64,000 nucleotides of DNA, from the NCBI GenBank assembly GCA_019429145.1, contig JAHYJI010000002.1, positions 19,336 to 83,335 of the forward strand, read 5' to 3'. Both the position numbers and the translations under genes were made by a program. Positions 32,112 through 62,430 of the stretch are shown piece after piece. The stretch's first letter is position 1; every line of letters begins with the position of its first letter. The notes beneath the pieces were generated by a model. The model was given only the letters and a program-made list of their open reading frames with translations, made no database searches and had not been told where the DNA came from. Origin of the DNA: Coriobacteriia bacterium. GTDB lineage: Bacteria > Actinomycetota > Coriobacteriia > Anaerosomatales > SLCP01.

Positions 32112-32118
32112 CCTCCGC

Positions 32119-32215
32119 GGAGGCGGATGGGTCCTGGTGGGCTCCGCGGTCTTCAAAACCGTAGTGGGGCGTGAAGAGCGTCCCGGGTGTGTTCGATTCG
32201 CACGCGCCTCCGCCA
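32119..32215 (+). tRNA. selC: tRNA-Sec (anticodon UCA), encoded CCA
   Basis: Hand fold: acceptor GGAGGCG(G)/(G)CGCCTCC. 6-bp D stem GGGTCC/GGGCTC with the 4-nt loop TGGT. Anticodon stem GCGGT/ACCGT with loop CTTCAAA. Long extra arm GGGGCG...CGTCCC. T arm GTGTG-TTCGATT-CGCAC. Discriminator G plus CCA. It sits immediately after selB. Confidence 0.88.
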
Positions 32216-41656: not shown

Positions 41657-41672
41657 TAATGACATTATAATG
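41657..41672. promoter_or_regulatory. overlapping palindromes / bidirectional TATAAT between the RHH gene and sulP
   Basis: TAATGACATTATAATG reads as TAATG-A-CATTA overlapping CATTA-TAATG. CATTATAATG is self-complementary, so TATAAT reads on both strands. It is an AT-rich island in GC-rich DNA. Confidence 0.45.
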
Positions 41673-46407: not shown

Positions 46408-46528
46408 GAGGAGATGGTACCACCGCGTAGCCCCGCGCAAACACGACTCGCCACACCGTCCAAACCGCCGTTCGGGTAGCATTACACTCGGCAGGGCGCA
46501 CAGCGCCGGATGCGACGGGAGGTCTGCG

Positions 46529-47465: not shown

Positions 47466-48458
47466 TCAGACCGCAAGCCGGAGTTCGTCTCCCGTCGCCC
47501 CGGACTCGTAGCCCGGGATGCGCGAGACGGTGTGCCTGAATGTCTTGCTGTGGAGCCGTTCGATGAGCCGGACGGTCTCCTCGCGCTGGTAGACCTCGAC
47601 AGGCATCACGAGGTCGTAGCGTTCCCTGAACAGAGGCACGAATCCGAGCCCAAGCCGCTCGGCGGCGGCAGCAACTCCCACCGCCACATCGGCCGTTCCC
47701 CGCGCAACGGCCTCGGCCACGCCGGTGTGTGTGTCGTATGCGGTCTCATAACCGGGTACGGCCGAGGTATCGGCGCCCAGGTCGGCGAGGGCATGGTCGA
47801 TCCACAGTCGAGTGCCCGAGCCGCGGTTGCGATTCGCAAGGCGGAGCCTTCCCTCGGCCACGTCGGCGATCGACGAGATGCCGTGAGGATTGGCGGGCGG
47901 AACGATGAGCCCCTGCTCCCGGTGGGCGAGGGTAACCAGGATGACGTCCCGGTCGGGGAAGATGTGACGGGCGTAGGGCGCGTTGTACTCCCCGGTGTCG
48001 GAGTCGAGCAGATGGCACCCCGCGATATCGGCCAGACCCTGGCGCACGCCGATCAAGCTGTCGAGACTCCCGGCGACCATGGTCGCGAGCGGATGGGGAT
48101 CGTCAGGGTCATCCGCCAGGGCCTCGACCGCCATGTCGTGGCTCACCATGGCAATGAGTGGAGATTCCGGACCGGGCTCCGGGCGTACGACCAGCGAGAT
48201 CGAGAACGCCGCTGATGTCCCGGCATAGTACTTCTCTGTGAAGTTCCGCGTGGCGCGGACCTCAGTGAGCCTGACAAGCTTGGCCGCTTCGAGCGCCTTG
48301 ACGTGATGGCGCACCCACGCCGGGTGTTTGCCGAGTCGAGCGCCGAGCATGGTGAGCGTGTGAGGCTGCGCCAGCAGGATCCGGAGGATCTCGAAGCGGT
48401 GAGGTGCCGCTAGCACTCGGATCGCGTCGAGACGGCTGATGTCGTCAAGGTTGTGCAT
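47466..48458 (-). CDS. one-component regulator: ArsR-type wHTH fused to periplasmic-binding-protein-like (molybdate/tungstate-binding-like) domain
   Basis: N-terminus: RVLAAPHRFEILRILLAQPHTLTMLGARLGKHPAWVRHHVKALEAAKLV. C-terminus: DIAGCHLLD...LANRNRGSGTRLWID..., as I recall for COG1910-type PBP domains. Divergent from mop-tupABC. Confidence 0.7.
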   Translation of the reverse strand: MHNLDDISRLDAIRVLAAPHRFEILRILLAQPHTLTMLGARLGKHPAWVRHHVKALEAAKLVRLTEVRATRNFTEKYYAGTSAAFSISLVVRPEPGPESPLIAMVSHDMAVEALADDPDDPHPLATMVAGSLDSLIGVRQGLADIAGCHLLDSDTGEYNAPYARHIFPDRDVILVTLAHREQGLIVPPANPHGISSIADVAEGRLRLANRNRGSGTRLWIDHALADLGADTSAVPGYETAYDTHTGVAEAVARGTADVAVGVAAAAERLGLGFVPLFRERYDLVMPVEVYQREETVRLIERLHSKTFRHTVSRIPGYESGATGDELRLAV

Positions 48459-48512
48459 CGCACACCATTCTCGCGGCTCGGCTTGTGGCAGGGCATGCTA
48501 AACTTCCCTTTA

Positions 48513-48527
48513 GTATAACTGCTATAC
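48513..48527. promoter_or_regulatory. inverted repeat GTATA-N5-TATAC upstream of mop
   Basis: aGTATAactgcTATACg sits 18 nt upstream of the mop ATG, in the 86-nt divergent region shared with the HTH-PBP regulator. It is an AT-rich ModE-operator-like half-site arrangement. Confidence 0.4.
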
Positions 48528-48544: not shown

Positions 48545-48751
48545 ATGAAGATCAGCGCACGTAACCAGCTTCGCGGCACCGTCGTCTCCGTAAAGGAAGG
48601 CGCTGTCGAGGCGCAGGTTGTGCTCGACGTCGGCGGCCAGCACATCGTATCTGTAGTCACGGTTGACGCAGTCAAGGAACTCGGACTTTCCGAGGGCTCG
48701 CCGGCCGTTGCCGTCGTCAAGGCCGACAGCGTCATGCTCGCGGTCGACTAG
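48545..48751 (+). CDS. mop: molbindin (Mop/TOBE domain molybdate/tungstate-binding protein)
   Basis: 68 aa: MKISARNQLRGTVVSVKEGAVEAQVVLDVGG...VKADSVMLAV, a canonical mono-TOBE sequence. RBS gaggagg. Confidence 0.88.
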   Translation: MKISARNQLRGTVVSVKEGAVEAQVVLDVGGQHIVSVVTVDAVKELGLSEGSPAVAVVKADSVMLAVD

Positions 48752-48849
48752 ACCGCATGCGGCTGACTTCTGCACCGCCGGTGGCGCTGCGGTTGTTCAG
48801 TCGGGCGCTTTCGTTATGGTTCTCGGCAGGCCGCCATCTGCGCGGCGAC

Positions 48850-48955
48850 GTAGCTCCGAGTCCGGATTTCCTACGGCCCAGCCGAGCGGGCCACGGATCC
48901 CGGACCGACAGGGTGGGGACGGGAAACCTCCTCGCCTCCCGGTGGAAAGGAGACC
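48850..48955 (+). ncRNA. candidate Moco/Wco riboswitch (Moco RNA motif) in the tupA leader
   Basis: The 208-nt gap between mop and tupA contains gCUCCGAGUCC...(nested stems GUCCGG/CCGGAC and GGCCC/GGGCC)...CCUCCUCGCCUCCCGGUGGAAAGGAGA. The GGAG RBS lies inside the closing helix, 9 nt before the ATG. This matches my memory of the conserved CUCCGAGCC and GCCUCC...GGAAAGG blocks of RF01055. Confidence 0.6.
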
Positions 48956-48959
48956 CAAC

Positions 48960-49841
48960 ATGCTCGAACATCTTGTGTCGTCCGCGGTGTGGAAGCGGAC
49001 ACTGCTCCTGGCTCTCGCGGTAGTGATGGCGGTGTCGCTCGCTGCTTGCGGAGCAGCCGAAGAACCCGAGGAGATCGAGGAGCCGGTAGTCGAGGAGCCC
49101 GTCGAGGTCACGAGTGTCATCCTCGCCTCGACCACCTCGACGGAGGACTCCGGACTTTTCGGCGTTCTCGTACCTGCGTTCCAGGATGACTACCCGCAGT
49201 ACCGCATCGATGTGGTCGCGGTGGGCACGGGTCAGGCTCTCGAGATCGGTCGCAACAAGGACGCAGACGTACTCCTCGTGCATGCAAAGGCAGATGAGGA
49301 GCAGCTCGTGGCCGACGGCTACGGTATCGAACGCCGTGACGTCATGTACAACGACTTCGTTATCGTCGGGCCCGAGGCTGATCCTGCCGGCATCGCAGGC
49401 GGCGATGACGCGGCTGCGGCTCTGACTGCGATCTCCGAGGGGGGTCACACGTTCGTGTCCCGGGGCGACGATTCGGGGACTCACAAGAAGGAGCTCAGTC
49501 TGTGGAGCGCTGCGGGTATCGAGCCTGCTGGCGACTGGTATCTGTCAATCGGGCAGGGCATGGGCGACACGCTCAACATGGCCTCTGAGAGCGAGGCGTA
49601 CACCCTCGCTGACCGGGGCACCTATCTCGCCATGAAGGACCGGATCGATCTCGTGGTCGTTGTCGAAGGCGACGAAGCGCTCTTCAACCCGTATGGCGTC
49701 ATCGTCGTGACCGATGCGAACAACCTCGACGGCGCTCAGGCGTTCGCGGACTGGATCGTCTCGCCGGCGGGGCAGGATATCATTCGGGAGTTCGGCGTGG
49801 ACACCTACGGCGAACCATTGTTCGTCCCGAACGCAGACTAG
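48960..49841 (+). CDS. tupA: tungstate ABC transporter substrate-binding lipoprotein
   Basis: Lipobox SLAACG. TupA signature ASTTSTEDSGLFGVLVPAF, GTGQALEIGRNKDADVLLVHA and SRGDDSGTHKKE. Confidence 0.88.
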   Translation: MLEHLVSSAVWKRTLLLALAVVMAVSLAACGAAEEPEEIEEPVVEEPVEVTSVILASTTSTEDSGLFGVLVPAFQDDYPQYRIDVVAVGTGQALEIGRNKDADVLLVHAKADEEQLVADGYGIERRDVMYNDFVIVGPEADPAGIAGGDDAAAALTAISEGGHTFVSRGDDSGTHKKELSLWSAAGIEPAGDWYLSIGQGMGDTLNMASESEAYTLADRGTYLAMKDRIDLVVVVEGDEALFNPYGVIVVTDANNLDGAQAFADWIVSPAGQDIIREFGVDTYGEPLFVPNAD

Positions 49842-49853
49842 GCACTCCGAACC

Positions 49854-50558
49854 ATGGTATTCATCGAAGCGGTCGTCACAGCGGTGGCCTTGCTCCTGCA
49901 GGGTTCCGCGGAACTGTGGAATGTCATCGCGACCACATTCGAGGTTGCCATCACCTCCACGGTCGCCGGAGTCGTGCTCGGCGCCCCCATGGGATTCCTC
50001 ATGGGGGCGACCCGGTTCCGGGGCCGCAGGCTCGCGGTTGCTCTGATCAACACCGCCATGGCCATCCCGCCGGTGGTGATCGGTCTTGTCGTCATGATGA
50101 CGCTCTCACGTCAGGGTCCCTTGGGCTTCATGGGCCTTCTGTACTCCAAGGACGCCATGTCGATTGCCCAGACACTGATCTCCACGCCCATCATCGCCGG
50201 TCTCATCGCTGCGGCCGTGGCTTCCGTTCCGTACAAGCTGCGCCTGCAGGCCCGTTCTCTCGGCGCATCCAGGCTCCAGGAGGCCCTGCTCGCGCTGAGG
50301 GAGGCACGCCTGGGGGTGATCGCTGCGGTCGCGGCAGGTTTCGGCGCAGTCGTTCGAGGTGTCGGTGCAGTCATGATGGTCGGCGGCAACATCGAAGGAC
50401 AGACCAGAGTGCTCACGACCGCGATCGTCCAGGAGTCCCGAAAGGGTGAGTTCGGCCTCGCCCTCGCACTCGGCCTGATTCTCATGACGATCACCTTCGC
50501 GATGAACGGCTTCCTTACCTGGTATCAGCACTCGAACGAACGTTTCGACAGGAGCTGA
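49854..50558 (+). CDS. tupB: tungstate ABC transporter permease
   Basis: 234 aa MetI-like permease with an EAA-type loop (SLGASRLQEALLALREARLG). It lies between tupA and tupC. Confidence 0.85.
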   Translation: MVFIEAVVTAVALLLQGSAELWNVIATTFEVAITSTVAGVVLGAPMGFLMGATRFRGRRLAVALINTAMAIPPVVIGLVVMMTLSRQGPLGFMGLLYSKDAMSIAQTLISTPIIAGLIAAAVASVPYKLRLQARSLGASRLQEALLALREARLGVIAAVAAGFGAVVRGVGAVMMVGGNIEGQTRVLTTAIVQESRKGEFGLALALGLILMTITFAMNGFLTWYQHSNERFDRS

Positions 50559-50563
50559 CCGGA

Positions 50564-51664
50564 GTGATGAACGACACTCAGGCAGGCATGGCTCTGCGGT
50601 GCACGGGGATCCGCAAGTCCTACGACAAGCGCACCGTTGTTGATGTCGCCGAGTTGGACATCCCCGCAGGCGAGACCCTGGCCGTGCTCGGTCCGTCGGG
50701 ATCGGGCAAGTCGACGCTTCTTTCGATCCTCGGGCTGCTCGAGCCACCTGACGCAGGTGAGGTGTACCTGGACGGCAACAGGGTGACGCATCGCGACAAG
50801 ACAGCCCGCATGCACATGGCTGCCGCGTTCCAGAGCCCCTACCTTTTCAAGGGCACGGTCGCCGACAACGTGGCCTACGGTCTCAAGCTGCGCAGGATGC
50901 TCTCGGTCGACCGGAGAAGCGCCGTCGCCGACTCGCTCGAGCGAGTAGGTCTGGGTGGCTGGGAGAACCGATCGGCCCTCACGCTCTCGGGCGGCGAGGC
51001 GCAGCGCGTCGCTCTCGCTCGCGCCCTCGTACTCCGGCCGCGCGTTCTCTTGCTCGACGAACCCCTTTCATCCCTCGACCCCCTCATCAAGGGCCAACTC
51101 GCCCAGGACTTCGCCCGTATCATCAGAGAGCACTCGATGACGACGCTCTATGTCACGCACGACCAGAACGAGGCGATGGCGATAGCCGACCGCATGGTGA
51201 TCTTGCGGGACGGGGTCCCTGTCGCGTCCGGAACGGTAGACGAGGTCACCGGGTTGCCTCCGGACGCCTGGACCGCGAACTTCCTCGGAGCCGAGTCCCC
51301 GATGCAGGGTTCGGTGGTCTCGTCGGCAGACGGACTCATCGGTATCGACACAGGAGGATGTGTCGTCTACGCAGGAGGCTCGGAGGAGATCGGGTCTCGC
51401 CTGATCGTCGGTGTGCGTCCGGAGGATGTACTTCTCTTCGAGGGCGATGCTGATATCCCGATCACGACCGCACGCAACCGGTTCCTCGGCACCGTGGTCG
51501 ACGTCGAGCTATGGGGCGTCATGTACCACATGGTCATCGACATCTGCGGAAGCCGCTTGGCCTCGCGAGTCTCGCGCGCATCAGTCCGAGACATGGGTCT
51601 GGAGACGGGGTCAAAGGTCCGGGTCGTCTTCAAGGCCTCGGCTGTCCGGTACAAGCGCATCTAG
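50564..51664 (+). CDS. tupC: tungstate ABC transporter ATP-binding protein with C-terminal TOBE domain
   Basis: GPSGSGKSTLL, LSGGEAQRVALARAL, LLLDEPLSSLD. C-terminal TOBE: NRFLGTVVDVELWGVMYHMVIDI...KVRVVFKASAV. Confidence 0.88.
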   Translation: MMNDTQAGMALRCTGIRKSYDKRTVVDVAELDIPAGETLAVLGPSGSGKSTLLSILGLLEPPDAGEVYLDGNRVTHRDKTARMHMAAAFQSPYLFKGTVADNVAYGLKLRRMLSVDRRSAVADSLERVGLGGWENRSALTLSGGEAQRVALARALVLRPRVLLLDEPLSSLDPLIKGQLAQDFARIIREHSMTTLYVTHDQNEAMAIADRMVILRDGVPVASGTVDEVTGLPPDAWTANFLGAESPMQGSVVSSADGLIGIDTGGCVVYAGGSEEIGSRLIVGVRPEDVLLFEGDADIPITTARNRFLGTVVDVELWGVMYHMVIDICGSRLASRVSRASVRDMGLETGSKVRVVFKASAVRYKRI

Positions 51665-51691
51665 CCCGGCGGGCATTGCTAGCGCCAGGCA

Positions 51692-51707
51692 TGTAACAGA
51701 CGTTACA
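51692..51707. promoter_or_regulatory. palindrome TGTAAC-N4-GTTACA upstream of the cofactor operon (site A)
   Basis: caTGTAACagacGTTACAatg. Perfect 6+6 inverted repeat. It overlaps a TACAAT -10-like hexamer and lies 49 nt upstream of the mobA-fdhD start. Confidence 0.5.
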
Positions 51708-51755
51708 ATGTGCTGTGCCGGATACTCGGCTCCGTGAAGAAAGGCCTCTCAGAAC

Positions 51756-53177
51756 GTGGCTGAAGACAGGATTCCCTGTACCGCGGCGGTACTTGCCGGC
51801 GGACGCTCGATGCGGATGGGTGTCGACAAGACGCTGCTCGAGGTCGATGGCGTCCCGCTTGTTGCGCGCGTCGTCGAGTCTGTCACCCGAGTGTGCGCTC
51901 ACACGTTTGTCGTGACCAACCGGCCCGAGAGCCTCGATGGTATCGATCTTGCCGACGAGGTCACCGTGCTGACCGATGAGGTTCCGTACCAGGGGCCGCT
52001 CGGCGGACTGGTCACTGCGCTCAAGGAGGCACCGGACGAGTGGGTGCTGGCGGTGGCCGCCGACATGCCGTACCTCTCCGCGGCGGTTGTCCAAGCGCTG
52101 TGGGACGCGCGAGGCGGCGCGGATGCCGTTATGCCCGTGACCCCGGAGGGTCCCGAGCCGCTGCTCGCGCTCTACTCGCGGGCGTGCCTTCCTGCCGCCC
52201 GCCGCGTGTTGGCAACCGGCCGGCGACGCTTGGTGGCGATCTTCTCCGAGATCAACGCGGTCGAGGTGCCGATCGAGTCGCTGCGCTCGGTCGACCCCGA
52301 GCTGCGCAGCTTCCTCAACGTGAACACGCCCGAGGAGCTCGCCGAGGCGCGCGAGGAGACCGTGGCGCTTTCCGTCGAGCGCGATGCCACCGAGCGCGTG
52401 AGTGTCTCGGTCATCGAGGTCGGGACACGCCGTTCGCGTGGCATGCCCTCCGAACATCCCGTGACGGTCCACATGAACGATGTGGAGGTAGCCACCATCC
52501 AGGCCACACCAGAGGACCTCGAAGAGATGGCTGCGGGCTTTCTCGTCGCCGAGGGCCTTATGGTCAACCGGGACGACCTTGTCTCCATCGACGTCGATTA
52601 CAAGCGCGGACTCGTCTACGTCTCGACGCTCGAAGAGGTTCCCGACGACATGGTCTACAAGACACGCTACGTCACGAGCGGATGCGGCAAAGGGATCACC
52701 TTCTCCTCGGTGGGCCACGCGCGCGGTCTCGACCACATCGAGACGCACCTGCGCCTCGACAGTCAGGTCGTCTACGACCTCATGGGCCAGATGGCCCGGG
52801 CCGCTACGGCATACCGGGACACCGGTGGCATGCACGCGTGCGGCCTGGCACGTGACGGTGAGCTTCTCTTCGTGCGGGAGGACGTCGGGAGGCACAACGC
52901 GCTGGACAAACTGCTCGGGCGTGCCTGGCTCGATCGCGTGCCCACTCGCGACGCCATCCTGCTCTCGACCGGCCGCATCTCCTACGAGATGGCCGTCAAG
53001 GCTGCCAAGGCAGGCGTGCCGGTCGTAGTCTCCCGCACCGCTGTGACCGATCTCGCCGCAGAGATAGCCGGCGAGCTCGGCATCACGCTTGCAGGCTATG
53101 CGCGCGGCGGCAAGATAACCGTCTACACCCATCCCGAACGCATCACGAGCCACACGACCGATGAGGATGACGAATGA
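51756..53177 (+). CDS. mobA/fdhD: fusion protein: molybdenum cofactor guanylyltransferase MobA + sulfurtransferase FdhD
   Basis: N-terminal ~200 aa: AAVLAGGRSMRMGVDKTLLEVDG...YQGPLGG...AADMPYL (MobA). C-terminal ~260 aa: VTSGCGKG...GGMHACGL...EDVGRHNALDKLLG...SGRISYEMAVKAAKAGVPVVVSRTAVT (FdhD). One uninterrupted ORF. Confidence 0.85.
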   Translation: MAEDRIPCTAAVLAGGRSMRMGVDKTLLEVDGVPLVARVVESVTRVCAHTFVVTNRPESLDGIDLADEVTVLTDEVPYQGPLGGLVTALKEAPDEWVLAVAADMPYLSAAVVQALWDARGGADAVMPVTPEGPEPLLALYSRACLPAARRVLATGRRRLVAIFSEINAVEVPIESLRSVDPELRSFLNVNTPEELAEAREETVALSVERDATERVSVSVIEVGTRRSRGMPSEHPVTVHMNDVEVATIQATPEDLEEMAAGFLVAEGLMVNRDDLVSIDVDYKRGLVYVSTLEEVPDDMVYKTRYVTSGCGKGITFSSVGHARGLDHIETHLRLDSQVVYDLMGQMARAATAYRDTGGMHACGLARDGELLFVREDVGRHNALDKLLGRAWLDRVPTRDAILLSTGRISYEMAVKAAKAGVPVVVSRTAVTDLAAEIAGELGITLAGYARGGKITVYTHPERITSHTTDEDDE

Positions 53178-54421
53178 CGATATCCGTGGAACAAGCCCGC
53201 GACCTGGTCCTGGCGCGCTGCGGGGTTCTCGAGACCGAGGACGTGCCGCTGCTCGAATCGCTCGGGCGCGTGCTGGCGGCCGACGCGCGCTCCGACATCG
53301 ACGTCGCGCCCTTCGACAACTCGGCGATGGACGGCTACGCGGTGCGTGCGACCGATCTCGCGGGTGCCTCGCAAGACTCGCCGGCGACGCTCGCGGTCAT
53401 CTCCCACATCGCCGCCGGCGACTACTCCGAGATCGAGGTCGGACCCGGCCAGGCAGCGCGCATCATGACAGGCGCCCCGGTCCCTCCAGGCGCCGATGCG
53501 GTCGTGATGGTGGAGTACACCGAGGCGGGCGAGGTTTCAGGCTCGACCGGTGGCACCGTGCACGTCATGCGCGAGGTCCGCGAGGGCGAGAACATCCGCC
53601 GGCGCGCGGAGGAGGTCTCGGCGGGTGACGTCGTGCTGGAGGCAGGCGAGGTCATCGGGCCCGCGGCCGTCGGACTGCTCGCATCTACCGGACACGCCAC
53701 CGCCACGGTCTACCGCCGTCCGCGTGTGGCGGTGATCTCGACCGGCGACGAGCTCGTCGAGGTCGCCGAGAAGCCGGGCCCGGGCAAGATCCGCAACTCC
53801 AACTCCTACTCGATCGCCGCCCAGGTGATCGCTGCCGGCGCGATCCCGCTGCGCTACCCGATCCTGCGCGACGACCCCGACGCGACCCGCGAGGCGTTCA
53901 CCCGCGCGGCCGCCGAGGCCGACTTCATCGTCACGAGCGGCGGGGTAAGCGTCGGGGACTTCGACTACGTCAAGCCGGTGCTCGAGGAGCTCGGCGAGAT
54001 GGAGTTCTGCAAGGTTGCCATGCGCCCCGGTAACCCCCAGACGCTCGGCTCTATCTCGGGCGTGCCCTTCTTCGGCCTGCCGGGCAACCCGACCTCGACC
54101 TTCGTCGGCTTCGAGATCTTCGTGCGCCCGTCGTTGCGTTACATGCAGGGCCACACGAAGCTCGATCGTCCGCGCCAGGCCGCCACGCTTGCCCACGACG
54201 TCAAGAAGAAGCAGGACCGCCGCTACTTCTTGCGGGCTCGTCTCGATCGACGCGATGACGGGGCGCTCTCGGTCGCACTCTCCGGGAGCCAGTCCTCGGC
54301 CCTGCTCACCGCGGCACATCGCGGCAACTGTCTTCTCGTCCTGCCGGAAGGGGAGGGTTTCTTCTCCGAGGGCAGCACGGTGGAGGTCATCCGACTCGAC
54401 ATGGAGGAAGGGATCGCATGA
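53174..54421 (+). CDS. moeA: molybdopterin molybdotransferase
   Basis: FDNSAMDGYAV, RIMTGAPVP, STGDELV, KIRNSNS, SGGVSVGDFDY and the GNP...F pattern. 4-nt overlap with the upstream gene. Confidence 0.92.
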   Translation: MTISVEQARDLVLARCGVLETEDVPLLESLGRVLAADARSDIDVAPFDNSAMDGYAVRATDLAGASQDSPATLAVISHIAAGDYSEIEVGPGQAARIMTGAPVPPGADAVVMVEYTEAGEVSGSTGGTVHVMREVREGENIRRRAEEVSAGDVVLEAGEVIGPAAVGLLASTGHATATVYRRPRVAVISTGDELVEVAEKPGPGKIRNSNSYSIAAQVIAAGAIPLRYPILRDDPDATREAFTRAAAEADFIVTSGGVSVGDFDYVKPVLEELGEMEFCKVAMRPGNPQTLGSISGVPFFGLPGNPTSTFVGFEIFVRPSLRYMQGHTKLDRPRQAATLAHDVKKKQDRRYFLRARLDRRDDGALSVALSGSQSSALLTAAHRGNCLLVLPEGEGFFSEGSTVEVIRLDMEEGIA

Positions 54422-54633
54422 GCGACACACCCAAGGTTATCGATCCGCGCTGGCTCGATCAGGTCACGCCCGAGCTCGTCGATGCCGTCCGCGCCAAGGC
54501 GCACGATGGTAAGGTGACCTGTCCGGTGCTGCGCAAGCTCGCCGAGGACACCGGCATCCCGTACAAGGTGGCAGGTGCGGCGGCCGATTCGGTCGGCATC
54601 AAAGTCCACAACTGCGATCTCGGCTGCTTCTAG
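54418..54633 (+). CDS. small conserved-looking Cys protein of unknown function inside the cofactor operon
   Basis: 71 aa: MSDTPKVIDPRWLDQVTPELVDAVRAKAHDGKVTCPVLRKLAEDTGIPYKVAGAAADSVGIKVHNCDLGCF. Its ATGA overlaps the moeA stop. Three Cys (C35, C66, C70). Confidence 0.55.
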   Translation: MSDTPKVIDPRWLDQVTPELVDAVRAKAHDGKVTCPVLRKLAEDTGIPYKVAGAAADSVGIKVHNCDLGCF

Positions 54634-54682
54634 GGCCGATAGGATGGGCGCGGCCGGTACCGCGCCAGGAGGCTCACGACAG

Positions 54683-55207
54683 ATGACAGACTTTCGTATC
54701 CCGGTCGTGTCCGTGGTGGGCAAGGGCAAGTCGGGCCGCACGACCCTGCTCGAGGGCGTCATCACGACGCTCACCGGACGGGGCTACCGTGTGGCCACGG
54801 CCAAGCACCACTTCCACGAGACCGACATCGACACGCCCGGCAAGGACTCGTGGCGCCACTGGAACGCCGGCGCTGTGGTCACGATGGTGAGCGCTCCCGA
54901 CCGGCTCGGCGTCTTTCGCCGGGTCGAGCAGGAGCGCACGCTCGTCGAGCTCGCCGGGGAGGCGGGCGATGTCGACATCATGCTGACCGAGGGCTTCCGG
55001 CGGACCTCGCCGGTGCTTGTGGAGGTTGTGCGCGAGGAGCGCTCCACCGAGCCGATCTGCGCTCCCGAGGAGCTCTTTGCGCTCGTGACCGACGTGGAGG
55101 AGTTGCGTGGGCTGCCCGTGCCCACGTTTGCGCTTGATGATGCAGCGGGGCTCGCGACCCTCATCGAGGAACGCTTTCTCGGCGAAGCGAGGGGCGGTGA
55201 TGCGTGA
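54683..55207 (+). CDS. mobB: molybdopterin-guanine dinucleotide biosynthesis adapter protein MobB
   Basis: P-loop VVSVVGKGKSGRTTLL, then RGYRVATAKHH...DTPGKDS. RBS ccaggagg, ATG at 54683. Confidence 0.88.
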   Translation: MTDFRIPVVSVVGKGKSGRTTLLEGVITTLTGRGYRVATAKHHFHETDIDTPGKDSWRHWNAGAVVTMVSAPDRLGVFRRVEQERTLVELAGEAGDVDIMLTEGFRRTSPVLVEVVREERSTEPICAPEELFALVTDVEELRGLPVPTFALDDAAGLATLIEERFLGEARGGDA

Positions 55208-56226
55208 TGGCAACCGACTCGTACGGCCGGCGCATCGACTACCTGCGCATCAGCCTCACCGACCGGTGTAACCTGCGGTGCGTTTACTGCATGCCCGCCA
55301 AGGGCGTGCCGTGGAAGCCGCACGATGAGATCCTCACCCTTGAGGAGATCGAGCGGTTTGCGGCAGCTGCAGTGGGTGAGGGTATCTCGAAGATCCGCCT
55401 CACCGGTGGCGAGCCGCTGGTGCGCAAAGGGGTCGTCGGGCACGTCCGGCGACTCAAGGAGCTCACGGGGCTTGAGGCGATCGCGCTTACCACCAATGGC
55501 ACGCTGCTCGCGCGCTACGCGGCACCGCTGGTCGAGGCTGGCCTCACTCGCGTCAACATCTCCATCGACTCGCTCGATCCAGCCGTTTTCGAGCGCGTGA
55601 CCCGTGGCGGCAAGCTCACCGACGCGCTCGCGGGGCTCCACGCCGCGTTCGAGGCGGGTATGGGGCCGATCAAGGTGAACGCCGTTGTCGTGCGCAGTCT
55701 CGAGCAGGACCTCCTCGGCTTCGCTCGGATGACGCTCGATCGGCCCGTGCACGTGCGGTTCATCGAGTACATGCCCGTAGGTGGTGTGGGAGGGGGGGAG
55801 TGCGAGCCGGCGAGCGAGGGCTGGACGCAGGCCGACCACGTGCCCGCCGACGAGATACTCGAGCGTCTGGCTGCCGAGGGGATCGCCGCGGGCATCGGAG
55901 CACCCGAACCCGTGCAGCGTGCCGAGGCACCGGGTGGCTGGGGGCCGGCCCGCTACTACCGCTATCCGGGCGCAGAGGGCACGGTCGGCGTGATCACCCC
56001 GCTCTCTCACCACTTCTGTGGCGAGTGCAACCGTTTGCGCCTGACTGCAGACGGCCGTCTGCGCGCCTGCCTCTTCTCCGACGACGAGATCGACGTGCGC
56101 ACGGTACTGCGCGAGGGCACCGACGCCGATGTGCGCGAGGTCATCCGGATGGCGCTCGCCACCAAGCCCGAGAGCCACAGCATGCGCGTGGGAACCACGC
56201 GCGGCATGTCCCAGATAGGGGGCTGA
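55204..56226 (+). CDS. moaA: GTP 3',8-cyclase (radical SAM)
   Basis: [19 protein letters not shown] radical-SAM cluster motif, GGEPLVR, and the C-terminal second cluster [18 protein letters not shown]. Confidence 0.95.
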
Positions 56227-56231
56227 GCGGC

Positions 56232-56768
56232 ATGGCCGAACCCACGCATTCCGCCGCGGGGCGCCACGAGCGCCTCACCCACCTCGACGAGCGTGGCGAG
56301 GCCCGCATGGTCGACGTGGGCGAGAAGCCCGACACCCGTCGGCGTGCCGTCGCCTCCGCGATCATCACGATGCGTCCGGAGACGCTCGCGATGATCGTCG
56401 AGGGCAGGGCGCCCAAGGGCGACGTCTTCGCCACCGCGCGCATCGCGGGCATCATGGCCGCCAAACGAACGAGCGACCTCGTCCCCATGTGTCACCCGCT
56501 CGCGCTCACGCACGCGAGTGTCGAGCTCGAGCCCGAACCCGCCCCCGCGGACATAGTGGGCAGTGCCGCGGTGCGCATCACCGCGACGTGCGAGACCACC
56601 GGTCCCACCGGCGTGGAGATGGAGGCGCTCACGGCGGCGGCGGTGGCGGGTCTGACCCTGTACGATATGTGCAAGGCGGTCGACCGGGGCATGGTCCTCG
56701 ACGACGTCATGCTGCTCGAGAAGGATGGCGGCGCATCAGGTCGCTGGACCCGTAAGGAGGACGAATGA
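56232..56768 (+). CDS. moaC: cyclic pyranopterin monophosphate synthase
   Basis: [59 protein letters not shown]. Confidence 0.93.
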
Positions 56769-57259
56769 GCGGCGATTCCATGACACTTCCCACGCCCGGC
56801 CGGGTGGTCTCGGTGAACCTCTCCGAGAAGAAGACCGTCCGCAAGACCCCCGGTCAGAGTGGCACGCTCGTCTACGACCGCGGGTTTGAGGGCGACGCGC
56901 ACGCGGGCGACTGGCACCGCCAGGTGAGCCTGCTCGCTCAGGAGTCCATCGACTCGATGGTAGCCAAGGGGCTCGATGTCGGCGCGGGCGACTTCGCCGA
57001 GAACATAACCACCGAGGGCATCGATCTACCGGCCCTGCCCGTGGGCACGGTGCTCAAGGTCGGCGAGGACGCCGTGCTCGAGGTGAGTCAGATCGGCAAG
57101 GTGTGTCACACCAAGTGTGCCATCTACTACCAGGCCGGCGACTGCGTCATGCCCCGCGAGGGCATCTTCGTGGTCGTGCGCGAGCCCGGTGACGTCGCGG
57201 TGGGCGACACCGTCGAGGTCGTCTCGCTCGGCGACGGCACCTGCGACAGGGTTGAGTGA
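56765..57259 (+). CDS. MOSC domain-containing protein
   Basis: [17 protein letters not shown]...[17 protein letters not shown]...[11 protein letters not shown] beta-barrel MOSC pattern. 4-nt overlap with moaC. Confidence 0.85.
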
Positions 57260-57260
57260 C

Positions 57261-57740
57261 GTGGACCGTCCGGTGCGCCTCGGGATCGTGACGTGTTCGG
57301 ATACCCGCTCGGAAGCCGAGGACACGGCGGGCGCGGCGCTCAAGACGCTCATCACGGCCCGCGGCTGGCAGGTAGTCGCCTACACCATCTGCCCCGATGA
57401 GGAGTCCTGCATCGCAGAGGCGCTCATCGAGATGGCCGACTCGCTCGATGCCGACGTCATCCTGACGTGCGGCGGGACCGGATTCAGCCCGCGCGACATC
57501 ACGCCCGAGGTGACCGAGAGGGTCGCCGGTCGCCGCGCGCCCGGCATCGCCGAGCACATCCGCGCGCAGAGTCTCGCGGTCACGCCGCGTGCTGTGCTCT
57601 CGCGAGCCACCGCCGGAATCCGGGGCACCACACTCATCATCAACCTCCCCGGTAGCGAGAAGGCCGCCCGGGAGTCATTCGGTTTTGTGGCCGACCAGCT
57701 CGAACACGCCGTAGACATGATGGCCGGAGGGGGGCACTAG
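57261..57740 (+). CDS. moaB: MoaB/MogA family molybdenum cofactor biosynthesis protein
   Basis: LGIVTCSDTRS...DVILTCGGTGFSPRDITPE...PGSEKA motifs. GTG at 57261. Confidence 0.88.
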   Translation: MDRPVRLGIVTCSDTRSEAEDTAGAALKTLITARGWQVVAYTICPDEESCIAEALIEMADSLDADVILTCGGTGFSPRDITPEVTERVAGRRAPGIAEHIRAQSLAVTPRAVLSRATAGIRGTTLIINLPGSEKAARESFGFVADQLEHAVDMMAGGGH

Positions 57741-58910
57741 GTGCCCGCATCCAGCTCCCCACGACCGGTCGCCTACCTCGATCACGGCGCGACGTCCTGG
57801 CCGAAGCCCGAACAGGTCGTTCATGCGGTCACCCGTGCTCTGACCGAGCTCGGCGGCAACCCGGGACGTGGTGCGTACGCGATGGCGCTCGCGGCATCGC
57901 GCGCCATCTTCGAGTCCCGGCGGACGTGCGCAGAGCTGCTCGGCGTCCCCGACTCCCGCGACCTGATCTTCCAGCCCAGCTGCACGGCAGGCTGCAACCT
58001 CATGCTCAAGGGGACGCTGAAGCCCGGTGACCGGGTCGTCGTCGGGTCGATGGAGCACAACGCCGTCGCGCGGCCGCTCGAGCACCTGGCACGCACGGGC
58101 GTCGAAGTGGTCGTCGTGCAGGGCGACCGCACGGGGCTCGTGGACCCCGACGACGTCGAACGCGAGGTCCGCGCCGCACCCACCCGCGCGGTCGTCTGCC
58201 AGCACGCATCCAATCTCACCGGCACTATCCAGCTCATAGGAGACCTCGCCGACATCGCGCACGAACACGGCGCGCTGATGCTCGTGGACGGGGCCCAGGG
58301 GGCCGGACACGTCGACGTGGACATCCGCGTCCTCGGAATCGACGCGTACGCAACCTCCGGGCACAAAGGCATGCTCGGACCGCAGGGGGTGGGCCTGCTC
58401 TACCTCTCGCCTGACCTCGATGTTCAGACTCAGGTGCAGGGCGGGACCGGCGGCGGAGGATCGGAGTCCCCCGACATGCCCATCGAGCGCCCCGATCGCT
58501 ACGAGGCGGGAACCGCCAACACGCCGGGAATCCTCGGCCTCGGAGCGGGAGCCGCGTTCCTCATCACCGAAGGTGCGCGACAGCATCGTCGCGAGGCGGA
58601 GCTCGCGCGCCAGCTCATCGAGGGCATCTCGACGATTCCCGGCTTCAGGGTACTCGGGCCTCCAGCGGGTGCGCCACGCGTGCCGATCGTCAGTGCGGTG
58701 CACGACAGAGTGGATGCGGACAGGATCGCCTTTGCTCTCGACCGTACGTACGGCATTGCTGCCAGGGCGGGCCTGCACTGCGCGCCCTGGGCGCATCGCA
58801 CCATCGGGACCGTGGACTGCGGAGCGATACGGCTCGGTATCGGCTGGGGCAACACAGGCGAGCACATCGACCTTGCGCTGCGCGCCCTGCGCGACATCGT
58901 CTCCTCATGA
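57741..58910 (+). CDS. class V aminotransferase: cysteine desulfurase / selenocysteine lyase family
   Basis: YLDHGATSWPKP, HASNLTGT, ATSGHKGMLGPQGVG (PLP lysine), TPG, and GLHCAPWAH (active-site Cys loop). It starts 1 nt after the moaB stop. Confidence 0.85.
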   Translation: MPASSSPRPVAYLDHGATSWPKPEQVVHAVTRALTELGGNPGRGAYAMALAASRAIFESRRTCAELLGVPDSRDLIFQPSCTAGCNLMLKGTLKPGDRVVVGSMEHNAVARPLEHLARTGVEVVVVQGDRTGLVDPDDVEREVRAAPTRAVVCQHASNLTGTIQLIGDLADIAHEHGALMLVDGAQGAGHVDVDIRVLGIDAYATSGHKGMLGPQGVGLLYLSPDLDVQTQVQGGTGGGGSESPDMPIERPDRYEAGTANTPGILGLGAGAAFLITEGARQHRREAELARQLIEGISTIPGFRVLGPPAGAPRVPIVSAVHDRVDADRIAFALDRTYGIAARAGLHCAPWAHRTIGTVDCGAIRLGIGWGNTGEHIDLALRALRDIVSS

Positions 58911-59155
58911 GCGGCCGCCCGTTGCGCTCCTTTGCCGTACTGGGCTTCGCGACCACCCATACCGCGCTCGCTGCGGAGCAGTTGCTCAAGGATCTCGGTG
59001 TGCCGGTGACGCCGATCCCCGCGCCCACGTCGATCGGCGGCGCACTCTGCGGCATCGCCCTGCGGCTGGATCCCGGCGATGTCGAGCGCGCCGAGACCTT
59101 GCTGGAGCGTGCGGAGCTCCCGGTCGCCGCGCGGGGCGAGATAGAGGATGTCTAG
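58907..59155 (+). CDS. DUF3343 domain protein (putative Se/S carrier-like)
   Basis: 82 aa: FAVLGFATTHTALAAEQLLKDLGVPVTPIPAPTSIGGALCGIALRL, which is the DUF3343 pattern with its conserved Cys. 4-nt overlap with the desulfurase gene. Confidence 0.7.
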   Translation: MSGRPLRSFAVLGFATTHTALAAEQLLKDLGVPVTPIPAPTSIGGALCGIALRLDPGDVERAETLLERAELPVAARGEIEDV

Positions 59156-59238
59156 CGCTCGCCGCGAATGAGAGCAGCACCGGGTGCGCCTGAGGAACGA
59201 CCCTCACTGCTTGCCTAGCGGGGGGTCCTCTGGTGTAA

Positions 59239-59254
59239 TGTAACTCGTGTTACG
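59239..59254. promoter_or_regulatory. palindrome TGTAAC-N4-GTTACg upstream of the cytochrome operon (site B)
   Basis: gtaaTGTAACtcgtGTTACGag. Same half-sites and spacing as site A at 51692. It lies 115 nt upstream of the cytochrome b ORF start. Confidence 0.45.
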
Positions 59255-59368
59255 AGCTCTTCCTGCAACGCCCGACGTCCGGCAGTCGTCGAGCGCGTCG
59301 CGTGCGGCTGGAGCCAAGCTGCGGGAAGAGACGGCCGAATCGCATACGCGGGGGCTGCGAGTCCTCGC

Positions 59369-60235
59369 GTGACAGGGAGCAGGGGGGTGTCGGCGATAGT
59401 AAGCCTGACCCAGTTGAACATCTGGCTGGACGTCGCGTTCACCAGCCTCTACGCGGTCGTTCTGGTCGCCCTCGTCATACACTTCCTCGGCAGCATCCCC
59501 AAGGGGCGATTCCGCAAGAAGTTCATCCTCAAGAAGTGGCCGGAGCACGATCACGCTCCGGGGACCCAGCCCAAGCTCCTGCACCACACACATATGCTGA
59601 TGATGATCGTCCTCGCGATCTCGGGCCTCTACATCAGGTTCCCGTTCTTCGATGGCGGCCGCACGGCGATGCGCTACATCCACTACTTCGCCATGATCGT
59701 CGTCACGATCAACCTCATCTGGCGGCTGTGGTACGCGTTCTTCTCCAAGCAGCGCGACTGGAGGGAGTTCGCGATCACCAAGGATGACGCCAAGTCCGCT
59801 CTCGGCGTCATCCTCTACTACTCCTACATCAGCAACAGCAAGCCGCACACGTCGTCGAAGTACAACGTCATGCAGAAGTTCAGCTACCAGTTCTTCCTCG
59901 TGCTGATGCTGATGCAGGTGTATACCGGCTTCGCGTTAGTGTTCACGCCCATATTCTGGGGCTACAGTCCCCGTGACATCCTCGTGGGCTGGTGGCTCGG
60001 GGTATTCGTCGGCTCGACCGACCTTGCCGGATGGTATGCGCGCACGGCCCACTACGTGATCAACTGGCTCTTCATCATCATGACCACCGTCCACGTCTAC
60101 CTGTCCGCGACCGAGGACGTCCCGGTCACGCTCGACTTCTTCTTCGTCAAGGACCTGGAGATCAAGGGCGGCCACGGTCATGCACCGGAGCCGCACGCGG
60201 TCCCGGCCGCGGGGACGACGGCGGGTGATCAGTGA
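59369..60235 (+). CDS. membrane b-type cytochrome (Ni/Fe-hydrogenase / FdnI / PhsC-type cytochrome b family)
   Basis: 4-5 TM helices with conserved His (VIHFLG, LLHHTHMLMMIV, MRYIHYFAMIV, TAHYVINWLFIIMTTVHVY) and KYNVMQKFSY. The start may be GTG at 59387. The stop overlaps the next gene's start. Confidence 0.75.
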   Translation: MTGSRGVSAIVSLTQLNIWLDVAFTSLYAVVLVALVIHFLGSIPKGRFRKKFILKKWPEHDHAPGTQPKLLHHTHMLMMIVLAISGLYIRFPFFDGGRTAMRYIHYFAMIVVTINLIWRLWYAFFSKQRDWREFAITKDDAKSALGVILYYSYISNSKPHTSSKYNVMQKFSYQFFLVLMLMQVYTGFALVFTPIFWGYSPRDILVGWWLGVFVGSTDLAGWYARTAHYVINWLFIIMTTVHVYLSATEDVPVTLDFFFVKDLEIKGGHGHAPEPHAVPAAGTTAGDQ

Positions 60236-61119
60236 TGCGAGCCGGCACTTTGACCAAACTGGCTCTGCTGGCGCTGGCCCTCTCTGTGACGATGATCCCT
60301 GCGGCAGCTCTTGCCCAGGAGGCACCGGTGGCCACCACGAGCGCTGACGTCATCGGCTACGACGTCGACTTCACCCTGCCCACCGCCGCCAAGGCGGGAT
60401 GTCTGGTGTGTCACGGCGACGAGAACCTGATCCGTCTGCGCGAGGACGAGATCGTGAGCTTCTTCGTCGATCCCGCCGAGCTCGAAGCGGGCCCGCACGC
60501 GACGGTTCAGTGCGCCGGCTGCCACCTCGACTTCGCCTTCACCCTGCCTCACGTGCAGGAGACCGAGGATTGGCAGCGCACCGCCAAGTCCGCGTGCAAG
60601 AACTGCCACCAGGACCAGTACGTGGAGTACGGCCAGGGCGCTCACCGTATCGAGGTCGGCAACGGTGCGTCCGCCGATGCTGACGAGAAGCCGCTGTGCG
60701 GCGATTGCCACGGTGCGCACGACATGGTGGCGCTCGTGGATAGTCCCGAGGGCCAGGCGGCTATGCGGGACAACGCCTGGGAGGTCTGCGGCCGCTGTCA
60801 CGAGGACTACTGGGAGAACTACAACGACTACTACCACGGCCGCCCCTTCAAGCGCGGCGGTGCGTATGACGCGCCATCGTGCTGGGACTGCCACGGTTAC
60901 CACGACATCAGGCCGTCGAGCGACCGTCGTTCGACGGTGCACGAGAGCCGGCTTGCAGAGACGTGCACCAGCAACCCGGCCTGTCATCATGACGTGAATG
61001 TTGACTACCTGACCTACGCGGAGATGATCCACGGGCACGGTGAGCTGCTGGAGCAAAATCCCCTCTTTGACCTCCTGAGCAGGATACGGTCGGCGATCTC
61101 CGGCTTGTTCGGTGGCTAG
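60232..61119 (+). CDS. secreted multihaem c-type cytochrome, 6 CXXCH + 1 CX5CH
   Basis: Signal peptide LALLALALSVTMIPAAALAQEA. Motifs: CLVCH, CAGCH, CKNCH, CGDCH, CGRCH, CWDCH, plus CTSNPACH. Confidence 0.88.
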   Translation: MMRAGTLTKLALLALALSVTMIPAAALAQEAPVATTSADVIGYDVDFTLPTAAKAGCLVCHGDENLIRLREDEIVSFFVDPAELEAGPHATVQCAGCHLDFAFTLPHVQETEDWQRTAKSACKNCHQDQYVEYGQGAHRIEVGNGASADADEKPLCGDCHGAHDMVALVDSPEGQAAMRDNAWEVCGRCHEDYWENYNDYYHGRPFKRGGAYDAPSCWDCHGYHDIRPSSDRRSTVHESRLAETCTSNPACHHDVNVDYLTYAEMIHGHGELLEQNPLFDLLSRIRSAISGLFGG

Positions 61120-61173
61120 GCGAGACCTCCTCAGAGGACGCGCGCCACGCGAGACTCGGAAGGGCAGGCGGCG

Positions 61174-62421
61174 ATGATCCATCTCACGAGAGGTCGGGCG
61201 GTCCATCTCCTGTTGGCGACCGTGTGTGCGGCAGTGCTGCTGCTCGGAGTTGTGACGCTCGCAGTCGCACAGGATGACGGAGTCCTGATCATCGACACCG
61301 GTGCACCCGTCTACGCCAGTACCTGCAAGGTGTGTCACGGGGTGATAGCCGAGGGGCGCAACCCGCAGGTCGAGTTCAGTCACGCTACCCACATGGTCTA
61401 CGCATGCAGCAGCTGCCACGGCGTGTTCCCCCACACGCCGGCCGGAACCCTGACCCCCACGATGAAGAGCTGCTGGAACTGCCACGGGCTGCGCCACGGC
61501 CCGATGGGGATCATCGCAGGCTACGAGTGCGAGCAGTGCCACGGCAACTACGCCGGGCGGATGCGTCCCGACTTCCACGGTCGTGACTGGGCCGAGGAGC
61601 CTCACGTCCAGCCGGGCATCGACGAGCTGCGAACCACGTGCATGATGTGCCACACGAAGGCCGACTGCGACTCCTGTCACCAGGAGGTCGGAGTGACCTG
61701 GCGCACGGCCGTGCCGTTCACCTACGACGCCGAGAACGGGTGCCTTGCCTGCCACGGCTACGAGAACCTCACGAAGGTCTCCGAGGACGGGCTGAAGTCC
61801 TACTACGTCACGGGGATCGATCAGAGTGCCCACCGCGACATCACCTGTACGCAGTGTCACCCCGACTTCGACTACACCGATGACGCGCCCGCGACACCCC
61901 TCTGGCGCATCAATGCCGGCCTTGCATGCCAGGAGTGCCACGACCACCAGGATGTGACCGAGGTCTACGCCGAGTCACTTCACGGCCGGCTCATCGCCGA
62001 TGGTGAGTACTCCTCGGCGACGTGCGCGTCCTGTCACGGTGGTCACGACATCGCTCGCCTCGACACCGAGGCGGCTCGACGTGCACTCCACCTGAGCGGC
62101 GAGCAGATGTGTGCCGAGTGTCATCGCGAGGCGTTCGACAGCTACGATGACTATTATCACGGCGCCCCGTACAAGCGCGGCGCCGTAGACGCACCGTCTT
62201 GTTGGGACTGCCACGGCGCCCACGAGGTGCTTGCGGTAGCCGACCCCGCATCGCTCATGTATTCGACCAATGCGGTCGAGACGTGCGGCCAGGACGGCTG
62301 CCACTACGGCTCGAGCGCGTCGTTCATCGAGCACACGTCCTACCTCATCCACGGCCGGAGCGAGTCCGTCTCCGCCAATCCGATCATCCGCTGGTGGCGT
62401 TCGCTGAGGGGTCAGGGGTAG
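61174..62421 (+). CDS. membrane-anchored/secreted multihaem c-type cytochrome, 12 CXXCH + 1 CX4CH
   Basis: N-terminal hydrophobic anchor LLLATVCAAVLLLGVVTLAVA. Motifs: CKVCH, CSSCH, CWNCH, CEQCH, CMMCH, CDSCH, CLACH, CTQCH, CQECH, CASCH, CAECH, CWDCH, plus CGQDGCH. Confidence 0.88.
   Translation: MIHLTRGRAVHLLLATVCAAVLLLGVVTLAVAQDDGVLIIDTGAPVYASTCKVCHGVIAEGRNPQVEFSHATHMVYACSSCHGVFPHTPAGTLTPTMKSCWNCHGLRHGPMGIIAGYECEQCHGNYAGRMRPDFHGRDWAEEPHVQPGIDELRTTCMMCHTKADCDSCHQEVGVTWRTAVPFTYDAENGCLACHGYENLTKVSEDGLKSYYVTGIDQSAHRDITCTQCHPDFDYTDDAPATPLWRINAGLACQECHDHQDVTEVYAESLHGRLIADGEYSSATCASCHGGHDIARLDTEAARRALHLSGEQMCAECHREAFDSYDDYYHGAPYKRGAVDAPSCWDCHGAHEVLAVADPASLMYSTNAVETCGQDGCHYGSSASFIEHTSYLIHGRSESVSANPIIRWWRSLRGQG
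61324..61680 (+). repeat. hexahaem module copy 1 (119 aa, protein-level repeat)
   Basis: Residues 51-169 of the 415-aa cytochrome: CKVCH...FSHATH..CSSCH..FPH...PTMKSCWNCHGLRHG...CEQCH...WAEEPH...CMMCH-x4-CDSCH. Confidence 0.6.
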
Positions 62422-62430
62422 GCCGGCCAT

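Follow-up and report, generated by a model that had tools for sequence, protein, structure and literature searches.

A 64-kb stretch of a Coriobacteriia genome (contig JAHYJI010000002.1, 64,000 nucleotides, hereafter the window) carries the same short palindrome ahead of two adjacent operons, one for synthesis of the molybdenum/tungsten (Mo/W) cofactor (Moco or Tuco) and one for a b-type cytochrome and multihaem c-type cytochromes. We find that this palindrome is the centre of a 22-bp dyad, GCTyGTAAC-N4-GTTACrAGC, that is rare, lies between genes, is conserved at the cytochrome b promoter of most related loci that have one, and also heads an operon for a selenocysteine-containing (Sec) formate dehydrogenase (FDH)-like enzyme. 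A dimeric DNA-binding protein that recognises a specific sequence probably uses this palindrome as its operator; it is most likely a repressor and would be encoded outside the window.

The two copies in the window are candidate 22-bp operators with no strand assigned. Site A (GCATGTAACAGACGTTACAATG) occupies 51689-51710 with its core, GTAAC-N4-GTTAC, at 51693-51706, and site B (TAATGTAACTCGTGTTACGAGC) occupies 59236-59257 with its core at 59240-59253; they score 28.4 and 28.1 bits, respectively, against the position weight matrix (PWM) described below. An initial annotation of this DNA had described both as the same 16-bp palindrome. On re-reading, site A (TGTAACAGACGTTACA, 51692-51707) is a perfect palindrome, while site B (TGTAACTCGTGTTACG, 59239-59254) has the position and core described but one mismatch, its final base being G instead of A. 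The reported distances needed slight revision: site A does precede the mobA-fdhD fusion gene, by 48 rather than 49 nt to its GTG at 51756, and site B ends 114 nt, not 115, before the longest cytochrome b open reading frame (ORF), which starts at 59369. The publicly annotated cytochrome b start is at 59387, 132 nt from the end of site B (P0001/P0002, 282 aa, 100% identical to the window's protein).

Searching both strands of the 64 kb for TGTAAC-N4-GTTACA with up to two mismatches returned sites A and B as the sole matches, in agreement with the earlier impression that the motif is missing from the other intergenic regions that had been read. Both sites are intergenic, in a window of which about 9% is intergenic and whose G+C content is about 68%. 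Scanning the whole window with the PWM gave nothing else at 14 bits or above. Dinucleotide-shuffled sequences contained 0.22 matches on average, compared to the two observed.

To place the motif in a wider context, we used MobA-FdhD as an anchor to collect 80 related 21-kb loci from metagenome-assembled genomes of the Anaerosomatales/Coriobacteriia, at 51-98% identity. One of these (L001) is from the same species as the window, and a 98%-identical sister genome contig (L143/L144) was added; in all, 146 loci were fetched, of which L081-L142 are matches from a metagenome pattern scan. Genes in the loci were mapped by tblastn, and the window's proteins were assigned with Pfam and NCBIfam. A symmetrised PWM built from the related sites and scanned over 1.38 Mb of related DNA gave a bimodal score distribution, in which 30 sites score between 21.5 and 34.3 bits and the best of the remainder only 15.5, and the motif is therefore highly specific. 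Every site that we inspected lies between genes and none in coding DNA, so the motif is not the common, genome-wide sequence that would have spoken against a shared regulator in the terms of the initial annotation.

Additionally, the dyad keeps its place at the cytochrome operon. In more than 20 loci an element of the site-B type follows mobA-fdhD at a distance of about 7.5 kb, always between the gene for a selenium/sulfur (Se/S)-carrier protein and cytochrome b, and it is absent where tblastn mapping finds no cytochrome b. A site is present in 20 of the 24 loci with cytochrome b, compared to 4 of the 56 without it. Sites are kept down to about 44-60% protein identity at the cytochrome b locus. 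An alignment of the intergenic DNA (A1) has a mean column identity of 49%, and its invariant columns all fall inside the motif, with GTAAC-N4-GTTAC as the invariant core.

Conservation upstream of the mobA-fdhD operon does not follow this pattern. Site A occurs only in the window, in identical form in its close relatives L001 and L143, and in L004, which is 80% identical and has a different spacer (GAATGTAACAATGGTTACAATG); it is missing at about 70 other mobA-fdhD loci. Site A is a lineage-specific addition. Because of this, the conserved core of the regulon is the cytochrome b/multihaem cytochrome and FDH genes, and not Moco synthesis.

One could suppose that two such copies are AT-rich palindromes that arose by chance, or members of a dispersed repeat such as a repetitive extragenic palindromic (REP)-like element or a terminator. 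A single one of 100 shuffles did contain two matches, and when we scanned metagenomes with the perfect 22-mer pattern GCTYGTAACNNNNGTTACRAGC, the 62 matching contigs were mostly unrelated hairpins in low-GC or unrelated genomes, so that the bare 22-mer pattern is not unique to this system. The only relevant contigs among them were three with cytochrome b sites (L101, L111 and L142) and one with an FDH site (L133). However, orthologous positions held in more than 20 genomes, the gap in the PWM scores and the exclusive association with promoters are hard to square with chance or with a mobile repeat. Consistent with this, no T-tract was found at the element and no extended similarity in the flanks of sites A and B. 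We regard this explanation as having almost no chance of being correct. As separate observations from the same scan, the high-GC contigs L097, L113, L136 and L140 share GCTTGTAACGACGGTTACGAGCTA with conserved flanks, and its reverse-complement form is found in L089 and L121; in L090, L100 and L110 the 22-mer pattern sits inside a longer hairpin in an unrelated context.

The few sites that are not at cytochrome b revealed further members of the regulon. All of them lie 45-105 nt upstream of Moco riboswitches, as separate elements. In L064 and L021 the palindrome is followed by the riboswitch and then by tupA, and in L071 and L046 by the riboswitch and then by a selenocysteine-interrupted gene for an Fe4S4 molybdopterin oxidoreductase with a twin-arginine translocation (TAT) signal, whose homologs are annotated by the Joint Genome Institute (JGI) as formate dehydrogenase major subunit. 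We read the DNA beyond the window's end from the 98%-identical sister contig, where cytochrome b, three multihaem cytochromes (mhc1-3), a TPR protein and an NHL protein follow in succession. Next come a TTGACA-17-TAGCCT promoter, a third palindrome (TTGTAACAATCGTTACAA) and a Moco riboswitch (L143:17414-17545). This third candidate operator, site C (TTTTGTAACAATCGTTACAACG, L143:17345-17366), projects to about 2.7 kb past the window's end. The operon that it heads encodes a Sec-FDH-like alpha subunit, a Fer4 subunit, a multihaem cytochrome, two unknown proteins, an NHL protein and a 1183-aa multihaem cytochrome. The FDH-like enzyme is a TAT-exported molybdopterin oxidoreductase that contains selenocysteine.

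In all five independent genomes in which we could read it (L143/144, L145, L146, L071 and L046), the FDH-like operon starts with the palindrome and a Moco riboswitch, and the same arrangement probably holds in L133 and L063. Beyond the sister contig, two genomes with FDH identities of 63% and 57% have the same supercluster and both sites B and C. Since site C heads the FDH-like operon in the sister contig, the regulon in the window's species comprises three adjacent operons. The earlier proposal that one regulator ties the cofactor and cytochrome operons together is strongly supported as a regulon, by the cytochrome b loci, the FDH-like operons, tupA in two genomes and the lack of sites in coding DNA, but within two limits: the tie to Moco synthesis is lineage-specific, and the three regulators that it put forward are each disfavored, as discussed below.

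The position of the element relative to promoters suggests how it might work. Reading from the sequence, the probable promoter of the cytochrome operon (59211-59239, plus strand) consists of a -35 hexamer TTGCCT (59211-59216), a 17-nt spacer and a TG-extended -10 hexamer TGTAAT (59234-59239), and this TTGCCT-17-(TGg)TGTAAT layout is kept in L002, L004, L006 and L146. What had been noted as a tandem TGTAA ahead of site B is better read as this -10 hexamer. In the window's clade the -10 overlaps the first four bases of the 22-mer, and site B covers both the -10 and the predicted start. The cytochrome b promoters of a distant clade have cgTTGACA, a spacer of 17-18 nt and TATCCT, TATTCT or TATGCT, with the -10 ending exactly at base 1 of the 22-mer, which places the predicted start inside its left arm. 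At site A, a TACAAT -10-like hexamer on the plus strand (51704-51709), correctly noted before as overlapping the palindrome, lies in the right arm and probably belongs to an internal promoter of the Moco operon; its surroundings (GTTACAATGTG) are also conserved in L004. A strict sigma-70 scan found no -35 partner for TACAAT, so the promoter at site A is inferred.

Elsewhere the element takes up other positions. At the tupA promoters (L064 and L021) it lies 12-13 nt upstream of a TATGCT -10, over the -35, and at the FDH promoters (L143 and L071) it lies at about +5 to +34, with site C at about +5 to +26. Relative to start sites placed from promoter hexamers, which are predictions, the site centres fall at about -36, about -16, about +6 to +11, and +15 to +24, and none is at -41.5. 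Such a variable, promoter-occluding position fits a repressor that acts by occlusion or as a roadblock in every case, and not an activator working from a fixed distance. The near-consensus promoters of the distant clade should need no activator. The element also has the general attributes of a repressor operator: it is a rare intergenic dyad, it is conserved at orthologous positions while its flanks diverge, and it overlaps predicted promoter elements.

Several observations weigh against an operator that controls these operons together. The cytochrome b loci L016, L021, L056, L061 and L068 have no site at the cytochrome b promoter, and site A is conserved in two lineages only. The window's own promoters at sites A and B fail the strict consensus scan, so that their start sites are inferred from hexamers. 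In the window, Pfam (cNMP_binding, HTH_Crp) revealed no CRP/FNR-like gene, and neither did tblastn with E. coli CRP over the window and the 80 loci, a search of low sensitivity. Finally, transcripts from the cytochrome b and FDH promoters include at least part of the element, which can fold, and this leaves room for an additional role at the RNA level.

This last point raises the alternative that the element works as RNA, as a 5'-terminal stem-loop affecting stability, processing or translation. The predicted start of cytochrome b and FDH transcripts coincides with the element or lies just ahead of it, and the element folds as a hairpin of 5-9 bp with energies of -4.6 to -7.4 kcal/mol (z = -1.7 to -2.9). 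In L071 the flanks lengthen the dyad (GGAAGG...CCTTCC), and in the cytochrome b leader the element is followed by a second, clearly RNA-like hairpin. However, the element lies upstream of the -10 at tupA (L064 and L021) and over the -10 at site A, where it would be untranscribed or partly transcribed if these are the sole promoters, and a -10 that abuts the 22-mer would start transcription within the left arm and truncate the stem. The arms are also invariant in sequence, with no compensatory changes, and the commonest flank pair, C4/A19, cannot pair. The neighbouring hairpin has the opposite pattern, in which the stem varies and the loop is fixed. Taken together, these observations make a role as RNA very unlikely and favor a DNA operator.

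The neighbouring hairpin is a feature of its own. In the window it is CGACG-TCCGGCAGT-CGTCG (59273-59291, plus strand), 15 nt after site B, with a CCGG(A)CA loop. Of the 20 leaders that we examined, 19 have a hairpin with this loop and a varying but still-pairing stem 6-20 nt past the operator, the stem being 3-11 bp in most. Cytochrome b leaders without the operator (L061, L068, L021 and L056) contain a CCGGCA-loop hairpin too, and neither the hairpin nor the cytochrome b leader has an Rfam match even at E<=10. Its loop contains GGA, as in CsrA-type sites, a link that we consider speculative.

Which protein might bind the palindrome? The initial annotation had put forward three regulators encoded in the window, and co-occurrence or the sequence of their own promoters disfavors each of them. 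The strongest case is the adjacent LysR-family regulator (46523-47419, plus strand), which could bind the palindrome and control the cluster. It is the only regulator conserved beside the supercluster, in the order FUR (minus strand), LysR (plus strand), tup, Moco, cytochrome b and FDH. In L101 and L142 the LysR gene is directly followed by the Se/S-carrier gene, the site and cytochrome b, and in L064 the site begins 7 nt past the LysR stop codon. The FDH is a selenoprotein, and the window's LysR belongs to the selenium-metabolism-associated family NF040786, exceeding its cutoff (265 bits versus 250). A multihaem-cytochrome-associated LysR family also exists (NF041036), but here the window's protein falls short of the cutoff (102 bits versus 210).

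Against this, 29 of the 49 loci with the LysR gene have no site within +/-10 kb. LysR-type transcriptional regulators (LTTRs) bind T-N11-A dyads, usually together with a second activation site, and normally autoregulate. Nevertheless, the motif is absent from the LysR gene's own promoter in more than 50 loci, and a FUR-type box, TGAGAAT-N-ATTCTCA, is conserved there instead. The even-spaced dyad, with its N4 spacer and symmetric T/A pairs at N10, N14 and N16, leaves no room for a T-N11-A box. There is no second conserved site of the activation-binding-site (ABS) type, and a position of +1 to +20 is atypical for an LTTR. Despite its synteny with the cluster, we consider it unlikely that the LysR protein is the binder.

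The other two regulators proposed earlier are an ArsR-type helix-turn-helix (HTH) protein with a PBP_like domain (PF12727; HTH-PBP, 47466-48458, minus strand, assigned with Pfam) and a 61-aa ribbon-helix-helix (RHH) protein of the RHH_9 family (PF19839, 75 bits; 41444-41629, minus strand), whose gene is divergent from a SulP permease gene. If either bound the palindrome, the system would amount to a ModE-like metal regulon, and the motif beside Moco riboswitches, tupA and Moco-synthesis genes does resemble the ModE regulon of E. coli. The PBP_like domain, moreover, is of the type fused to archaeal MoeA (NF011068 match). But HTH-PBP is encoded in only 4 of the 80 loci, three of which have no site, and its promoter has a different conserved palindrome upstream, CTAAA-N6-TTTAG (48498-48513). 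The RHH gene has a palindrome of its own, TAATGACATTA, and none of the 146 fetched loci encodes a homolog of the protein. A single W-responsive repressor that shut off uptake, cofactor synthesis and enzyme together would also be poor regulatory logic. We see only a remote prospect that HTH-PBP or RHH binds the palindrome; HTH-PBP is probably a local W/Mo sensor for mop and tup.

The palindromes near these candidate genes deserve mention. Between the HTH-PBP and mop genes, CTAAACTTCCCTTTAG (48498-48513) is a palindrome kept upstream of HTH-PBP in L033 and L030, and a second one, GTATA-ACTGC-TATAC (48513-48527), is ModE-box-like; the pair (48498-48527) probably serves a regulator that responds to W/Mo as its local operator. 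Between the RHH and SulP genes, the 11-bp palindrome TAATGACATTA (41657-41667) overlaps a perfect TATAAT (41666-41671), and because these lie there the SulP start is probably the ATG at 41697, not 41670. The FUR-family neighbour was rejected as a binder of the 22-mer, as the conserved box that goes with it, the 7-1-7 palindrome TGAGAAT-N-ATTCTCA, is of odd parity. In the window, the gap between the FUR and LysR genes (about 46382-46397) holds a FUR-box-like TGAGAAT-C-ATTATCA whose consensus, GTGAGAAnnnTTCTCAC, is conserved in more than 40 related loci. This palindrome is probably the operator through which the adjacent FUR-family protein controls its own gene and cbiMQO.

Known regulators of comparable pathways were set against the motif as well. 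In E. coli, ModE and FNR together with a Moco riboswitch control moaABCDE and modABC, with modABC repressed and moa under joint control with the riboswitch. As in that system, a regulator acting at the promoter would be paired here with a leader Moco riboswitch, and transport, cofactor and molybdoenzyme genes would be co-regulated. However, ModE sites are of the TATAT-N7-TAYAT type, with odd spacing, and the palindrome here has another sequence and parity. The window encodes no ModE (HTH_1 plus di-Mop), only a 68-aa single-TOBE Mop protein (48545-48751); the cluster's metal is probably tungsten, going by TupA, and an electron-transfer conduit is part of the regulon as well.

Rex, which is widespread in Actinobacteria and very conserved in its specificity, has the operator consensus TTGTGAA-N4-TTCACAA (TGTGAACGCGTTCACA in S. 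coelicolor). The palindrome shares with it the 6-N4-6 layout, the TGT...ACA ends and the repressor-type positions over promoters of respiratory genes, but differs by two mismatches per half-site (TGTAAC here versus TGTGAA), at positions that are invariant here. No Rex gene was seen in the window, and none was examined. With the LysR families NF041036 and NF040786 the system shares a LysR gene in synteny with the cluster, whose product in the window meets the NF040786 cutoff. It differs in that this protein is below the NF041036 cutoff and the motif has no T-N11-A, does not co-occur with the gene and is absent from its promoter.

The closest match in sequence points to the CRP/FNR family. The 22-bp even dyad, with TGT-N10-ACA ends, matches the geometry of HTH dimers such as this family, and its TGTAA-N6-TTACA register also fits what is generally known of CRP/FNR sites. 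Proteins of this family commonly control respiratory, FDH and Moco genes; E. coli FNR, for example, acts on moa and fdn. The binder could then be a CRP/FNR-family regulator with HcpR2-like specificity, encoded elsewhere and re-used for genes of anaerobic respiration. HcpR2 is a CRP/FNR branch that regulates hcp in Clostridia, Bacteroides, Thermotogales and Treponema (Rodionov et al. 2005, PMC1274295), and the 14-bp consensus published for it (PMC1274295), GTAACnnnnGTTAC, coincides exactly with the invariant core. It is the only match for the consensus in the searchable literature, and both motifs occur in anaerobes.

However, HcpR2 genes are co-localised and co-occur with hcp, which is the entire regulon in most species (PMC1274295), whereas we found neither hcp nor a CRP/FNR gene in the window or the 80 loci, the latter gene looked for by Pfam in the window and by low-sensitivity tblastn in the loci. 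The targets here are not hcp but cytochrome b and multihaem cytochromes, the Sec-FDH-like enzyme, Moco synthesis and tupA; the sites occlude promoters, and no site centre falls at -41.5, where class II activators bind; and the host belongs to the Actinomycetota (Anaerosomatales). Identity of a motif across phyla can also arise by convergence. We therefore view a CRP/FNR-family binder as a possibility with the balance against it, and treat the CRP/FNR-like specificity, itself tentatively held, as a lead and not as family membership. No regulator gene turned up in the 62 metagenome contigs, and none lies within or at the 3' end of the supercluster in the sister contig and two further genomes.

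Returning to a repressor encoded outside the window, its action might be pictured as follows. Copies of the operator sit on the promoters of linked operons, at site A for cofactor synthesis, site B for the cytochromes and site C for the Sec-FDH-like enzyme, and in some genomes at tupA. The bound protein would block binding of RNA polymerase, formation of the open complex or early elongation, and its release by a signal would turn on the enzyme, its cofactor supply and its electron conduit together. The whole pathway is probably under the control of one DNA-binding protein. Because the Moco riboswitches already sense the cofactor, the signal is more likely tied to demand for respiration that is formate-linked or extracellular, with formate, redox state or an electron acceptor as examples, than to W or Mo itself. 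Operator and riboswitch in series would then act as a two-input gate.

The genes around the sites form a supercluster of about 34 kb whose end, in three genomes, is marked by a convergent YkuD gene. From left to right, the gene order in the window is cbiMQO (minus strand), the FUR-family gene (minus strand), LysR, HTH-PBP (minus strand), Mop, riboswitch-tupABC, site A, the cofactor operon, site B and the cytochrome operon, which runs off the window. The Moco/Tuco riboswitch (RF01055, 53.6 bits; 48842-48968, plus strand) precedes tupABC (48960-51664; tupA ATG at 48960), whose TupA was assigned by an NCBIfam match, and nhmmer finds a riboswitch upstream of tupA in most of the 80 loci. RF01055 has no match at sites A or B, and the promoter of riboswitch-tupABC in the window has no palindrome.

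The cofactor operon (51756-59156, plus strand; Pfam and NCBIfam) has mobA-fdhD, moeA, a 71-aa ORF, mobB, moaA, moaC, MOSC, mog/moaB, a cysteine desulfurase and the Se/S-carrier protein, in the same order as in L143. The 71-aa ORF between moeA and mobB (54418-54633) is conserved, matches no Pfam family and has a gene call in the sister as well (L143:5035-5250). The cytochrome operon (59387-64000, plus strand; Pfam) starts with the cytochrome b561-like gene (59387-60235), followed by three multihaem c-type cytochromes at 60232-61119, 61174-62421 and from 62431 to beyond 64000.

Farther off, the window has complete selenocysteine machinery (26743-32211), with a selD-like AIR-synthase-family protein, selA, selB and tRNA-Sec (32119-32211), which is consistent with the cluster's Sec-containing FDH-like enzyme and the selenium-metabolism-associated LysR. 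An ECF (extracytoplasmic function) sigma factor (4593-5273) and a zf-HC2 anti-sigma factor (3812-4603), both on the minus strand, are a pair unrelated to the palindrome.

We conclude that the palindrome marks a new regulon in a little-studied lineage, with an operator whose kind is familiar, and not a new kind of mechanism. More tentatively, and with the odds against it, an uncharacterised regulator, either the member of a new family or a CRP/FNR protein of HcpR2-type specificity that has taken on a new role, may coordinate a Gram-positive extracellular-electron-transfer module in the Anaerosomatales. This module would comprise cytochrome b, multihaem cytochromes and a Sec/W FDH-like enzyme with its cofactor supply, and its operator would act in series with Moco riboswitches and a separate conserved leader hairpin. 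The 22-mer GCTCGTAACTGCTGTTACAAGC offers a precise bait for finding the regulator, and the motif a marker for further genes of the pathway. For an actinobacterial order that is uncultured or barely cultured, and known mainly from metagenome-assembled genomes of the subsurface and sediments, these results define a testable regulon. It joins W/Mo cofactor maturation, a Sec FDH-like enzyme and a multihaem cytochrome conduit under one transcriptional control, and provides an example of promoter-level control layered over Moco riboswitches.

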